NCBI GenBank assembly: GCA_019338205.1
Contig: GCA_019338205.1_4761.1
DNA from: a phage
Direction: 5' to 3' (one strand)
DNA: 64,000 nt
Of this stretch, positions 6,541 to 11,634 are shown piece after piece. Position numbers and translations under genes: made by a program. Within the stretch, counting starts at the first letter, position 1. Every line of letters begins with the position of its first letter. Under the pieces are notes generated by a model. That model did not search any database. It saw only the letters and a program-made list of their open reading frames with translations, and was not told the DNA's origin.

Positions 6541-6550
6541 GGTGATTATT

Positions 6551-7078
6551 ATGAAATGGGAAGTTGGTAAAACTTACAAGATTGAATGCGAAGCGTCGAA
6601 AGCCGAACTAACTAAATTTTCGTCGTCTATTAACAGATGTATTGTTGACTTGTTGGCTGGTCGCCCGTTTAGGGTAGAAGACCTTGACGATGATGGTGAT
6701 GTTAGAGAAATTACTGTTATTGGTAGTAATTTCGACTCTATGACGTTAAAAGAATCCCCTATTGGCTGTTCCGGCGTGTGGTTTTGGTCGGGTGAGCGTC
6801 GTTTCTTTACCGAAGTTACTATTGAACCTAAGATTCCAGATTCGGAAGAAAAAGAAGAAGACCTAACTTTAGAACGCCTGGGTCTGCTTATGGAAGCCTA
6901 CGACATTCAGTTGATCGATAAGATGGGGTTACATAATAGCATTGCCAAAATTACTACCCTAGAAGGTATTAAGAGCGTACTGGATGGTATGCCTAGCCGG
7001 ATCGGTGCTATCCGAGAATACAAACAAACGCGCGACCGTATGATCCAATTAGAATCACGTATCAAAAATGAGAGATGA
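6551..7078 (+). CDS. hypothetical protein, repeat-domain family B1 (MKWEVGKTY... start)
   Basis: ATG 6551; N-terminal MKWEVGKTY shared with 7083 and 7560 ORFs; RPF...DG...W(F)...ERRFF motif; C-terminal coiled coil. Confidence 0.65.
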   Translation: MKWEVGKTYKIECEASKAELTKFSSSINRCIVDLLAGRPFRVEDLDDDGDVREITVIGSNFDSMTLKESPIGCSGVWFWSGERRFFTEVTIEPKIPDSEEKEEDLTLERLGLLMEAYDIQLIDKMGLHNSIAKITTLEGIKSVLDGMPSRIGAIREYKQTRDRMIQLESRIKNER

Positions 7079-7082
7079 TATT

Positions 7083-7547
7083 ATGAAATGGGAAGTTGGT
7101 AAAACCTATGCGTGGAAAGATGTAAAAGATGCAAACCAATTTTTTAAATGGTATGATGTTGATTATTTGAAATATCTGAGATTACCGTTTAAAGTTGCGT
7201 CGGTTGATGCGAAAAAAGGATACGTGCGGTCTGTATATCTTCATGATGGAACTTATATGAGTTCAACCGATGTAGGTCTATCTTGTTGGTTTCTGGATCA
7301 TGACCGTAGCAGATTTGAAGAAATTATTATTCCAGAAGAATCTAAATTAATTGATCTTCTCAAGTTGGCGATGGATAATTATAAAATCCGCTTTGAATGC
7401 AAATCACATGCGGCTATCGGTGCTAACGCATTGCGTCATATCTCCAGTTTTGAAGAGTTGAAAGATTTTCTTGACAAAATGCCGGAAAGAGTGCAAGCTA
7501 TACAGGAAGCAGAGAAAGCATTAAACGAACTTGATAAAATCGGTTAA
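7083..7547 (+). CDS. hypothetical protein, repeat-domain family B2
   Basis: MKWEVGKTYAWKD N-terminus; C-terminal KDFLDKMPERVQAIQEAEKALNELDKIG tail. Confidence 0.65.
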   Translation: MKWEVGKTYAWKDVKDANQFFKWYDVDYLKYLRLPFKVASVDAKKGYVRSVYLHDGTYMSSTDVGLSCWFLDHDRSRFEEIIIPEESKLIDLLKLAMDNYKIRFECKSHAAIGANALRHISSFEELKDFLDKMPERVQAIQEAEKALNELDKIG

Positions 7548-7559
7548 GGGGAATATATT

Positions 7560-8384
7560 ATGAAATGGGAAATTGGTAAAACTTACACCTGGAAAGACGA
7601 AAACGCTAAAACTGAGTTTATTACTAACGGAGAAGGTGTTCTTTCTCCACTTAACAGCGATATTAGTGCAGCTATTGGTGACAAGCCATTTACCATCATC
7701 GAGATCGAGGGTAACGGTTGGATTGATGCAATAGAGCTAGACGGTGTTTATCATACGGCGAAAACTGCTACAGGAAAAGACATTTGGACTGCAACATATT
7801 TCTTTAGTCCATTCGATAGAAAATTCTTTCGTGAAGTTGAAGAAGTTCCCCAGAAATGGGAAGTTGGTAAAACTTATACTTGGAAAGATGTGAATGCTAT
7901 GACAGACTTCTGCCATTATGCTGAAAACGCATCTAACCTTAATTATGTTATTGCACGAGCAATAAATTATAGACCTTTTACTGTTAAAAATGTTCGTCCA
8001 TGTGGGCAAATTGATGTAATTGAAATTGATGGTAAAGACCATACTCTAATGAGCGCAACCGAAGATAGAGACCATAAAGGAACTAGCTGGTTTATTGATT
8101 CTGATAGAAAATTCTTTCGTGAAGTAGAAGAATTGGAAGTTATAACCACTGATTCTAAGATCGTTGGACAGTTGAAACGTCTGTTTAGTAGTCGTTACGG
8201 CCTGACAATGGTTAAATTTGGCGAAGCAAATGAAGGTAAAACCTTTGAACGTTTCGATGATTTCATTGCGGCACTTGACAAGATGGATGAAATCATGCAA
8301 GATCGCCAGAAGATTAAAGACCTTCAAGAAGACATTAAACGTCGTGAAGTTGAATTTTTGATTGGTAAAGAGCGAGGTTGGTAA
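7560..8384 (+). CDS. hypothetical protein with two tandem copies of the family domain
   Basis: MKWEIGKTYTWKD...RKFFREVEEV then QKWEVGKTYTWKD...RKFFREVEEL internal duplication; 274 aa. Confidence 0.7.
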   Translation: MKWEIGKTYTWKDENAKTEFITNGEGVLSPLNSDISAAIGDKPFTIIEIEGNGWIDAIELDGVYHTAKTATGKDIWTATYFFSPFDRKFFREVEEVPQKWEVGKTYTWKDVNAMTDFCHYAENASNLNYVIARAINYRPFTVKNVRPCGQIDVIEIDGKDHTLMSATEDRDHKGTSWFIDSDRKFFREVEELEVITTDSKIVGQLKRLFSSRYGLTMVKFGEANEGKTFERFDDFIAALDKMDEIMQDRQKIKDLQEDIKRREVEFLIGKERGW

Positions 8385-8385
8385 T

Positions 8386-8868
8386 ATGTTTGTTGCTGGC
8401 GTGACCTATCAGTGGAAAGATAAGAAAACGAGAGAAGATTTTGCAAACTTTAGCGTTGCAAATGATGCAATAGCAGAGTTTATAGGCGACCGTCCATTTA
8501 AAGTTATCGCATTTGATCACCATGCATCGGATGTTGATTATGTTTCTGCGATTGAAATTGATGGCACGGTATACACCTGCTGCAATGTTGATGATGTACG
8601 GGAATACGCGCACAACTGGTTTTTGCAATCAGAAGAACGTCATTTTAAAGTGGTATCGGCAGAACTGACCACTGATGCAATGTTGGAACAATTTTTCAAC
8701 AACTACGAAGTTTCTGTACGTCGATACGGTGAAGAGGAAGTATTTAAAATTGATGACTATAATCAGTTTAAACGAGTATTCGCCACTAAGATCCAACGTG
8801 ATATTGAACGCGAGAAGCGCATTAAGGAACTGGAAGAAGAACTAGAAAGATTAAAGGCTGAGAAATGA
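8386..8868 (+). CDS. hypothetical protein, repeat-domain family B4
   Basis: track ORF 8362..8868 trimmed to internal ATG; VTYQWKD...RPFKV...IEIDG.VYT...WF..EERHFKVV; C-terminal ELEEELERLKAEK. Confidence 0.6.
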   Translation: MFVAGVTYQWKDKKTREDFANFSVANDAIAEFIGDRPFKVIAFDHHASDVDYVSAIEIDGTVYTCCNVDDVREYAHNWFLQSEERHFKVVSAELTTDAMLEQFFNNYEVSVRRYGEEEVFKIDDYNQFKRVFATKIQRDIEREKRIKELEEELERLKAEK

Positions 8869-9134
8869 TCGAGATATACGGTATACCGAAAGAGGCTTAT
8901 CATTGTTATGGTTGTATTAGTGCAATGAAGCTACTGGATGATCTGGGTATTCCGTATACACTTAAACCAGTATTCAAGCCGGTCGGGGTTGACATTATTC
9001 CCGACCGTGATATGATTGAAGAACTGGCGGGGAGGCTAAACTCAAAGAGCCTCCGGTTTGTATACCCCCAGATATTCATTGACAACGAGCACATTGGAGG
9101 CTATAAAGAACTGAGGGCGATTTATGATTATTGA
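8865..9134 (+). CDS. glutaredoxin/NrdH-like redoxin
   Basis: 89 aa; CxxC (HCYGC) near the N-terminus; sits between nrdG and gp55 where T4-type phages carry a glutaredoxin. Confidence 0.6.
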   Translation: MIEIYGIPKEAYHCYGCISAMKLLDDLGIPYTLKPVFKPVGVDIIPDRDMIEELAGRLNSKSLRFVYPQIFIDNEHIGGYKELRAIYDY

Positions 9135-9282
9135 GAATTTAGTTTCGGTGTTCATTATTGCTTTATTTGCTATAATGACTTTACCGTTGAAGAAGTGTAA
9201 GCACTGTAACGGAACAGGATTGCGTGGTGATGGGTGTTGCGCTCATTGTCATGGATCTGGTAAAGTAAGTATCATTAAGTAA
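9124..9282 (+). CDS. small membrane-anchored DnaJ-type zinc-finger peptide (about 52 aa), not on the ORF track
   Basis: hand translation MIIENLVSVFIIALFAIMTLPLKKCKHCNGTGLRGDGCCAHCHGSGKVSIIK: hydrophobic N-terminus plus two CxxCxGxG repeats; coordinates approximate. Confidence 0.4.
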   Translation: MIIENLVSVFIIALFAIMTLPLKKCKHCNGTGLRGDGCCAHCHGSGKVSIIK

Positions 9283-9303
9283 TTCTTGAGTGAGGAATAT
9301 ATT

Positions 9304-9591
9304 ATGTTAGTACACAATGCAATCGCACACATGGTTTATTCTCGATTTGGGCGCATGGAAGAAATCAATATTACCGACGCAGATTTAGATCTGATGCAAG
9401 TCGAAGGCCAGACATATCTGAAAAATAACGGCGTGAATATCGGTAAAGCGCGTGTGCGTGAATTGTTAGTTGAATATATTCTCTCTGAATTTGGCATTAG
9501 TGCTTTCGGTGTGAAAGAGATTGCACCTAAGCGCGAAATTTCTGATAAAATGATCAAGAAATGCCAGAAAGCACGACGTAAGGGTTTCTAA
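9304..9591 (+). CDS. hypothetical protein
   Basis: ATG 9304 after GAGGAATATATT; track ORF 9286..9591 trimmed. Confidence 0.55.
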   Translation: MLVHNAIAHMVYSRFGRMEEINITDADLDLMQVEGQTYLKNNGVNIGKARVRELLVEYILSEFGISAFGVKEIAPKREISDKMIKKCQKARRKGF

Positions 9592-11100: not shown

Positions 11101-11634
11101 GTGTCTGATTATGTAAACAATAAAGAGCTTTACGAAGAAATTTGCCGTTGGAAACAACAAATTGCAGCAGAAGGTCGGCAAGTTCCAATGAGCGATCAAA
11201 TCGGCCTAGCAATTATGCAAATCTCTAAAAATCTATCACGTCGTTTTAACTTTTCTGGTTATAGTCAAACATGGCGCGAAGAAATGATCGACGACGGAAT
11301 CGAAGCGGCGGTCAAGGGTTTGATTAATTTTGACGAGACAAAGTATAAAAATCCTCATGCTTACATCACGCAAGCGTGCTTTAATGCTTTTGTACAGCGC
11401 ATTAAAAAAGAGAGAACAGCGACAGCCGCAAAATACAAATATTTTGTGCATCATGTATATGACGAACGCGACGCTGATATGTGCCAGATTGCTGATGAGG
11501 CATTCATACAGGACATTTACGATAAAATCAACAACTACGAGGAATCGGTCAATAAACCGAAAGCGCCAAAGGTTGAAGATGTATTGACCGAGGAATTGCC
11601 TAGCCTGGACCAATTTTATGAGATTGAAAATTAA
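11101..11634 (+). CDS. 55: late-transcription sigma factor gp55
   Basis: GTG start; [44 protein letters not shown] match remembered T4 gp55. Confidence 0.92.

Follow-up and report, generated by a model that had tools for sequence, protein, structure and literature searches.

The subject of this analysis is a 52-amino-acid open reading frame (ORF), here called zf, on the + strand of a 64,000-nucleotide stretch of phage DNA (contig GCA_019338205.1_4761.1 of assembly GCA_019338205.1; the whole stretch is called the window). The ORF starts with the ATG at 9124 and stops at 9280-9282; its translation is MIIENLVSVFIIALFAIMTLPLKKCKHCNGTGLRGDGCCAHCHGSGKVSIIK. Judged by synteny, its occurrence in a second phage lineage (Ounavirinae), selection and transcription signals, zf is a genuine conserved gene of RB49-like (Krischvirus) phages. 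The best explanation that we can offer is an early gene whose product would be a membrane-anchored cytoplasmic zinc ribbon that binds a partner. Taken as a whole, this explanation has an even chance of being correct, and its parts differ in strength. The architecture, that is one hydrophobic helix followed by a two-knuckle C-terminal domain of ~28 residues, and the assignment of this domain as a zinc ribbon are highly probable. As to the mechanism, a membrane-tethered binder or inhibitor of a host protein is proposed tentatively, by analogy with known proteins.

A reading made earlier from the letters alone (the sequence-only reading) had described a 52-amino-acid ORF overlapping the glutaredoxin stop codon, and this ORF is present at 9124..9282 exactly as claimed, both in sequence and in translation. 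It had also been called unannotated, which is not the case: the ORF is an annotated coding sequence (CDS) in RB49 (RB49p046, NP_891617.1), ECD7 (ECD7_00048), Makalu_002 and W115. The product is named 'putative membrane protein' in Makalu_002 and W115 and is otherwise 'hypothetical'; four of the listed records (E26, Sf20, 011D4 and KMB43) have no CDS under the match. The protein matches the PHROG 3931 profile with E=4.4e-10 and 40.5 bits, the aligned part being residues 9-48 of zf and positions 16-56 of the 59 in the profile.

Conservation and selection

The 2-kb stretch around the ORF is 99.5% identical to Escherichia phage ECD7. It matches 59 phage records at 93% identity or more, and almost all of these belong to Krischvirus (RB49-like T-even relatives). 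Gene order nrdH-zf-55.2-helicase-gp55 is strict in 59 isolates and in diverged metagenomic relatives. The slot of zf between nrdH and 55.2 is kept in every Krischvirus-like contig recovered, even where the glutaredoxin encoded by nrdH is only 57-66% identical. In the window the start of zf overlaps the glutaredoxin stop by 11 nucleotides (nt; ATGATTATTGA), zf being in frame +1 relative to nrdH. L035 is the sole Krischvirus-like contig without such an overlap, which measures 8-11 nt in the others.

Orthologues with the same layout, 54-58 amino acids long and 32-45% identical, are present in Ounavirinae, namely in Felixounavirus, a diverged Felix-like contig and Kolesnikvirus. There the gene always lies between a gene for a 111-113-amino-acid protein (gp003) and rIIA, though rIIA is only 36% identical. 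The upstream protein has no Pfam match and no CxxC, and a homologue of it was not found in the window. Across genera and two phage lineages zf proteins are 32-48% identical, with invariant cysteines and glycines. The dN/dS values of zf against four relatives are 0.16-0.47, and the start region MI(I/T)E is conserved among relatives. Both conservation in related phages, a check proposed by the sequence-only reading, and a translation signal are present, the two things whose lack was to speak against the ORF.

It could be argued that zf is a chance open frame between nrdH and 55.2 without any product, as it is very short and has been omitted from a few deposited annotations. This explanation has a negligible probability. 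Six-frame translation of the whole window gives only two intact CxxCxGxG matches, both in zf; 200 shuffles yielded on average 0.18 single motifs per window and not one motif pair. Together with dN/dS below 1 and the conserved Shine-Dalgarno sequence and start codon, the conservation pattern across the two lineages already refutes a spurious ORF.

The family looks phage-restricted, because the pattern GCC[PA][HI]CxG[SQT]G has no relative among 185,579 bacterial and archaeal genomes. A metagenome scan added only Krischvirus and Felix-type loci. Word-indexed protein search returned only three near-identical proteins, and an exhaustive hidden Markov model search was needed to reach the diverged alleles. 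T4 has no counterpart at the zf position, and the motifs are in none of the proteins translated from its nrdH-55 and rIIB-52 regions (55.1-55.8, Ac, 52.1, motA.1, ndd.3/4). T4 Ac, considered as a possible homologue, was rejected on the same grounds. Matches in cyanophage S-RIM2, Pbunavirus, a Ralstonia phage and contig L011 were also set aside, since the proteins concerned are soluble and larger and have nothing but the motif in common with the family. The protein from L011 (2977..3285; an AT-rich IMG/VR contig of 152 kb) is a soluble protein of 102 amino acids with four CxxC(x)G-type knuckles, the first of them CKHCNGTG. It is encoded between clamp-loader-like and primase-like genes, i.e. the same motif is found there in another architecture within a replication module.

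The predicted zinc-ribbon domain

The hydrophobic N-terminus followed by CKHCNGTG and CCAHCHGSG, as pointed out in the sequence-only reading, is borne out: a hydrophobic core of 17 residues is followed by the motifs at residues 25-32 and 39-46. In the 13 family members that were aligned, the invariant columns are C25, C28, G30, G32, C39, C42, G44 and G46, with K47 and E4 nearly so. In the 7-sequence core Krischvirus/Felix alignment (A4), G37 and C38 are invariant as well. The latter is a fifth cysteine immediately ahead of the second knuckle (its codon at 9235..9237, within the residues GCC); Kolesnikvirus has it nearby, as GCVC, and it is absent from DnaJ and anti-TRAP.

The profile of the 13 sequences matches the Cys-rich (CR) domain of E. 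coli DnaJ (1EXK) with E=4.5e-12, both halves being matched. It also matches B. licheniformis anti-TRAP (3LCZ) with E=8e-6, without gaps between positions 26-51 and residues 10-35 and with an identical 6-residue linker. AlphaFold2 with the family alignment models a helix at residues 2-19, then short strands or small hairpins. The top Foldseek matches of this model, none of them statistically significant, are anti-TRAP (root-mean-square deviation 1.0-1.5 Å over 30-31 residues) and the DnaJ CR domain. The family profile and the model thus uphold the earlier description of DnaJ-type CxxCxGxG repeats behind a membrane anchor. By its paired invariant knuckles and the 1EXK profile match, zf is a member of the DnaJ-CR-type zinc-ribbon class of folds and motifs. 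From the homology to DnaJ and anti-TRAP, a single Zn2+ would be coordinated by the four cysteines of the two knuckles (C25/C28/C39/C42), giving a zinc ribbon in the form of a small beta-hairpin. Only one zinc centre is possible because there are only two knuckles.

When the single sequence is used, all Pfam matches (GRXCR1-2_C, DUF5351, zf-AtTam37, DnaJ_CXXCXGXG) are below threshold. The NCBIfam model of RtpA (NF058604, anti-TRAP) gives 13.4 bits against a cut-off of 65 (E=0.064), which places zf outside that family. As to defence and anti-defence, there was no PADLOC match at E<=0.1, and Pfam Gad1 scored 12 bits against a cut-off of 27.

Relation to known proteins

The DnaJ/Hsp40 type I Cys-rich domain (1EXK; PF00684) has in common with zf the CxxCxGxG knuckle and, behind it, a short basic beta strand (GKV/GRV/GQV). 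DnaJ has ~376 amino acids and, besides four repeats that form two interleaved zinc centres, contains a J domain as well as a G/F region and domains for client binding. In zf there are two repeats, which would form one zinc centre, and a membrane anchor, but no J domain. This comparison decides about the possibility that zf is a DnaJ-type heat-shock co-chaperone. Motif similarity counts for it, and so do names in GenBank records of the Ounavirinae orthologues: 'heat shock protein, DnaJ-like' in Salmonella phage Mushroom (L004, 2986..3162) and 'chaperone protein DnaJ' in Erwinia phage Rouille (L005, 2971..3135). The 52 residues of zf contain no HPD, no G/F region and no C-terminal client-binding domains, and leave no room for a 70-residue J domain; no Pfam J domain was matched at E<=1. 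With only two of the four repeats there is one zinc centre. PF00684 scores 14.6 bits against a cut-off of 32.7, and NCBIfam DnaJ models 12-19 bits against 338-619. Because of the absent domains a DnaJ co-chaperone is effectively excluded. It is important to note that the labels on the Ounavirinae orthologues overstate the evidence and that over-annotation of this kind can propagate. In the Rouille genome (Kolesnikvirus) a ProQ/FinO-domain RNA chaperone (L005, 2179..2631; Pfam E=1.7e-18) is encoded two genes upstream of the zinc-ribbon peptide.

Anti-TRAP (AT, RtpA) of B. subtilis and B. licheniformis (2BX9, 3LCZ) is the best structural match to the zf model. It is a free-standing protein of ~53 residues whose sole folded element is a two-motif zinc ribbon, with identical knuckle spacing. 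It acts as a stoichiometric protein inhibitor of TRAP by direct binding and requires zinc (PMC2896485). Unlike zf, anti-TRAP is a soluble protein without a transmembrane segment or a fifth cysteine, and its trimers are formed by a C-terminal helix; it is a regulator of the bacterial trp operon and not a phage protein. In zf 6 residues follow the second knuckle, and in place of the trimerising helix at the C-terminus there is a transmembrane helix at the N-terminus.

In its architecture zf resembles Arabidopsis FIP (At5g02160), in which a membrane anchor is combined with two CXXCXGXG repeats on the stromal side and which binds the membrane protease FtsH5 (PMC5915565). Both combine a hydrophobic anchor with a C-terminal C4 zinc finger (a putative one in zf), and neither has a J domain; by its predicted topology the finger of zf would be in the cytoplasm, the side equivalent to the stroma. 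FIP is much longer and is a chloroplast protein with a transit peptide; the sequence relationship seen between the two does not go beyond the motifs. The closest relatives, PHROG 3931, RB49p046 and the gp002-type proteins of Felixounavirus, have the anchor, both knuckles and the extra cysteine in common, and some of them are named 'DnaJ' or 'heat shock'. Judged by profile scores and domain content, zf is a member of a catalogued uncharacterised family, PHROG 3931, with a domain of the DnaJ-CR/anti-TRAP zinc-ribbon class, and it is not a DnaJ, RtpA or GRXCR1 protein. We found no functional description of the membrane-anchored single-centre version in phages (Krischvirus, Felixounavirus) in the literature searched.

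The sequence-only reading had also suggested interaction with host chaperone substrates or a function in redox, and neither is supported: the protein lacks a J domain and can form no more than one zinc centre, its orthologues in Ounavirinae have no redoxin beside them, zf is swapped independently of the glutaredoxin, and the nearest free-standing precedent, anti-TRAP, is a protein inhibitor and not a chaperone (PMC2896485). In the redox alternative, zf would be a membrane-bound thiol-disulfide or redox-switch element which is reduced or sensed by the co-translated NrdH-like glutaredoxin. The retained overlap with the glutaredoxin stop is in line with this, and so are the fifth cysteine beside the second knuckle, invariant in the core family, and a weak motif-level Pfam match to GRXCR1-2_C (E=0.0036, 17.6 bits). 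Models for such a function are plant DnaJ-like zinc-finger proteins with disulfide-isomerase activity and GRXCR1/2 of animals, where a CxxCxGxG tail is joined to a glutaredoxin domain. However, the GRXCR1-2_C score is below the cut-off of 26 and the match covers only 12 residues. On these grounds zf does not belong to the GRXCR1/2 C-terminal domain family (PF23733), and the glutaredoxin is here a separate overlapping ORF in another frame. In Ounavirinae the orthologues follow the unrelated 111-113-amino-acid protein and precede rIIA, with no redoxin adjoining. Moreover, zf is replaced independently of the glutaredoxin (43-80% against 93-97% identity). A fusion of glutaredoxin and zinc finger by frameshifting, which GRXCR1 would suggest, was considered and rejected: the TGA comes 14 nt after the Shine-Dalgarno-like GAGGG, and neither a slippery codon nor a properly spaced stimulator was seen. 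We consider a thiol-redox role to be unlikely.

Membrane segment and predicted topology

The 17-residue hydrophobic core has a mean Kyte-Doolittle value of 2.65. It is preceded by an N-terminal tail of 4-5 residues that is acidic (E4) and contains no K/R. E4 is invariant in alignment A4 and nearly invariant in A5. The hydrophobic segment itself varies in sequence and length (one allele has +3 residues) and is always strongly hydrophobic. All 10 of the 10 core members have 0 K/R before the helix and 1-3 K/R after it. Since the positive-inside rule can be applied to these flank charges, the predicted topology is N-out/C-in, with the zinc ribbon in the cytoplasm, where its cysteines stay reduced. 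The product of zf would be a single-pass inner-membrane protein with one helix at about residues 5-22 and the zinc ribbon held at the cytoplasmic face of the membrane.

The opposite orientation would give a periplasm-facing N-in/C-out peptide, a signal-anchor with a disulfide-bonded domain, that could act in superinfection exclusion, lysis timing or envelope modification in the manner of T4 Sp, Imm and RI. Early small membrane proteins of T-even phages (T4 Imm, Sp, RI) often act in the envelope, which counts for this possibility. In addition, the Ounavirinae orthologue adjoins rIIA/rIIB, and three distant small proteins with the motif pair (P0015, P0026, P0030) carry basic N-termini or signal-peptide-like leaders; the motif pair can thus be usable outside the cytoplasm too. 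On the other hand, the positive-inside rule predicts the reverse topology in every core member, the acidic n-region is unlike that of Sec signal peptides, and the geometry of the knuckle pair fits zinc-binding cytoplasmic domains. There is also no homology to T4 Ac, 55.8 and other T4 small membrane proteins. A periplasmic domain is in our estimation quite improbable.

Expression signals

Sequence signals indicate that zf is very probably expressed early. Inside the glutaredoxin ORF there is a near-consensus sigma-70 promoter, TTGACA-16-TATGAT with a TG extension (Table 1). In diverged relatives a promoter is found at the same place, ~105-120 nt upstream, despite amino-acid changes: TTGACT-16-TACAAT in L038 and a perfect 12/12 TTGACA-17-TATAAT in L037. 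The status of a second promoter-like site closer to the ATG is uncertain because it overlaps a highly conserved coding stretch, FIDNEHIGGYK. The Shine-Dalgarno sequence of zf is kept in all relatives; in L037 it is AAGGAG despite differing glutaredoxin residues in the overlap.

The whole window was scanned for TTGACA-N16-18-TATAAT with at least 11 of 12 positions matching. This gave 33 sites on the + strand and 0 on the - strand, compared with ~1.4 per strand in shuffles, and because of this excess and asymmetry we take the 33 sites to be phage early promoters. The set is dense and strictly one-directional, and many of the sites are within coding sequence (examples on the + strand are 2173, 4676, 20074, 22803, 35583, 36566, 38524, 59472, 60029, 62388 and 63482). 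T4-type late promoters (TATAAATA) were found nowhere within tens of kilobases of zf. Folding of the RNA around the overlap does not differ from shuffles (z=-0.33). Host RNA polymerase would probably transcribe zf from the sigma-70 promoter inside nrdH, and by read-through as well. Translation would start from the GAGG Shine-Dalgarno sequence, possibly coupled to termination of nrdH.

Cassette-like diversity of zf alleles

In the relative L036 the glutaredoxin is 93% identical to that of the window and the proteins of 55.2, helicase and gp55 are each 99% identical, with zf at 43%. Window-by-window nucleotide alignment shows that identity drops from ~90-100% to ~50-70% at 9118, just before the start codon, and is back to 100% at 9289-9302, which is the ribosome-binding site of 55.2. 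A milder form of the same pattern is seen with alleles P0003 (80% identical) and P0004 (71%), the flanks being 96-98% identical. Within zf dS is 0.5-0.8, above most flanks, and dN/dS is 3-10 times that of the flanks. The alleles agree in the Cys/Gly scaffold, in having a hydrophobic helix and in the GK-x-S-I strand at the C-terminus. The window-type allele is carried by all 59 cultured isolates. Other alleles were met exclusively in metagenome assemblies; P0004 is common there, with 107 blocks in the index of the collection.

The simplest reading of these data is that recombination in the conserved flanks brings diverged alleles into the place of zf, and that its amino acids change fast in addition. 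Cassette-like replacement combined with amino-acid change at 3-10 times the rate of the neighbouring genes would fit a gene of host interaction (arms race). No partner gene co-varying with the zf allele was found among the neighbours; the 160-amino-acid and helicase-like genes vary independently.

Proposed function

By analogy, the zinc ribbon may be a protein-binding module that binds, sequesters or inhibits a partner working at the inner membrane, most likely a host protein. The action would be stoichiometric, as with the 53-amino-acid anti-TRAP on TRAP and plant FIP on FtsH5, and not that of a J-protein co-chaperone. A host target is likelier than a phage target because of early timing, phage restriction and allele turnover. 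Candidates, and no more than that, are FtsH, DnaK-linked processes and membrane-bound defence effectors. The most specific version of this proposal is an anti-TRAP-like membrane-tethered inhibitor that neutralises, early in infection, a protein associated with the host inner membrane (e.g. FtsH or a membrane-bound abortive-infection or defence effector) and whose alleles are exchanged as cassettes to track host variation. In this full form the proposal is rather doubtful.

Several observations weigh against a membrane-anchored cytoplasmic zinc ribbon that binds a host partner. The conserved Cys38 is given no role by a model with a single zinc. Zinc binding and topology are both derived from sequence, and the distant small proteins with basic N-termini or signal peptides (P0015, P0026, P0030) speak on the same side. 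Confidence of the AlphaFold2 model is moderate (mean pLDDT 72), and the Foldseek E values of 0.5-5 are not statistically significant for so small a domain. Most of the divergence between alleles is in the transmembrane segment, and weak constraint, not an arms race, could be the cause. The literature searched contains no experimental data on any family member or partner.

Small phage membrane proteins are often skipped in annotation and rarely studied, and several of them control host takeover, exclusion or lysis. If the anti-TRAP-like reading with cassette alleles is true, zf would represent a new class of phage counter-host microproteins. If a host membrane factor is inhibited, the protein would be a compact new tool and an example of a zinc-ribbon protein inhibitor beyond Bacillus anti-TRAP. 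The family is minimal and easily mutated, consisting of one helix and one zinc hairpin, and is conserved in both Krischvirus and Felixounavirus, two major groups of phages (coliphages, Salmonella phages) used in therapy and typing. Our analysis also corrects the 'DnaJ / heat shock protein' labels of deposited genomes. We regard zf as a solid, tractable candidate for a host-interaction microprotein of phage and not as a categorical surprise.

Neighbouring genes

The genes at the locus all lie on the + strand, in the order nrdG, a run of small paralogous genes, nrdH-like glutaredoxin, zf, 55.2, helicase-like gene and gp55. Coordinates of the features are given in Table 1.

Table 1. Features at the zf locus, with positions in the window
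Feature	Position	Strand	Remarks
nrdH-like glutaredoxin, 89 aa, CYGC active site	8865..9134	+	Pfam Glutaredoxin at threshold; PHROG 22
Near-consensus early sigma-70 promoter, TTGACA-16-TATGAT, TG extension	8989..9016	+	Inside glutaredoxin ORF; -10 ends 107 nt before ATG
Second promoter-like site, TTGACA-17-TATAAA, uncertain	9079..9107	+	Ends 16 nt before ATG
Shine-Dalgarno sequence GAGGG	9113..9117	+	GAGG core ends 7 nt before ATG, inside last glutaredoxin codons
Hypervariable cassette	9118..9288	+	Window-by-window nucleotide alignment to L036
zf, gene of 52-aa predicted membrane-anchored zinc-ribbon microprotein	9124..9282	+	RB49p046 / ECD7_00048 orthologue; PHROG 3931
Predicted transmembrane helix core, residues 6-22	9139..9189	+	Hydropathy; AlphaFold helix 2-19
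First putative zinc knuckle CKHCNGTG, residues 25-32	9196..9219	+	Aligned to DnaJ and anti-TRAP knuckles
Extra Cys38 and second putative zinc knuckle CAHCHGSG, residues 39-46	9235..9261 (motif 9238-9261)	+	Invariant columns; 6-residue linker
gp55.2-like DUF7570 gene	9304..9591	+	
Helicase-like gene, 489 aa	9591..11060	+	PHROG 2467; weak DEAD match
Late sigma factor gp55	11101..11634	+	

Four successive paralogous ORFs (178, 159, 274 and 160-168 amino acids) occupy 6542..8868. They have in common an N-terminal module MKWE(V/I)GKTYxWKD, which is present twice in the 274-amino-acid paralogue. These proteins match PHROG 5347 and, weakly, goF-like modulators of mRNA metabolism. Their identity to relatives ranges from 70% to 91% and varies independently of the adjoining genes.

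The 489-amino-acid helicase-like gene is a mosaic, with 99% identity in L036 and L003 and only 68-70%, at saturated dS, in L034 and L040. The gp55 gene beside it is 97-99% identical throughout.

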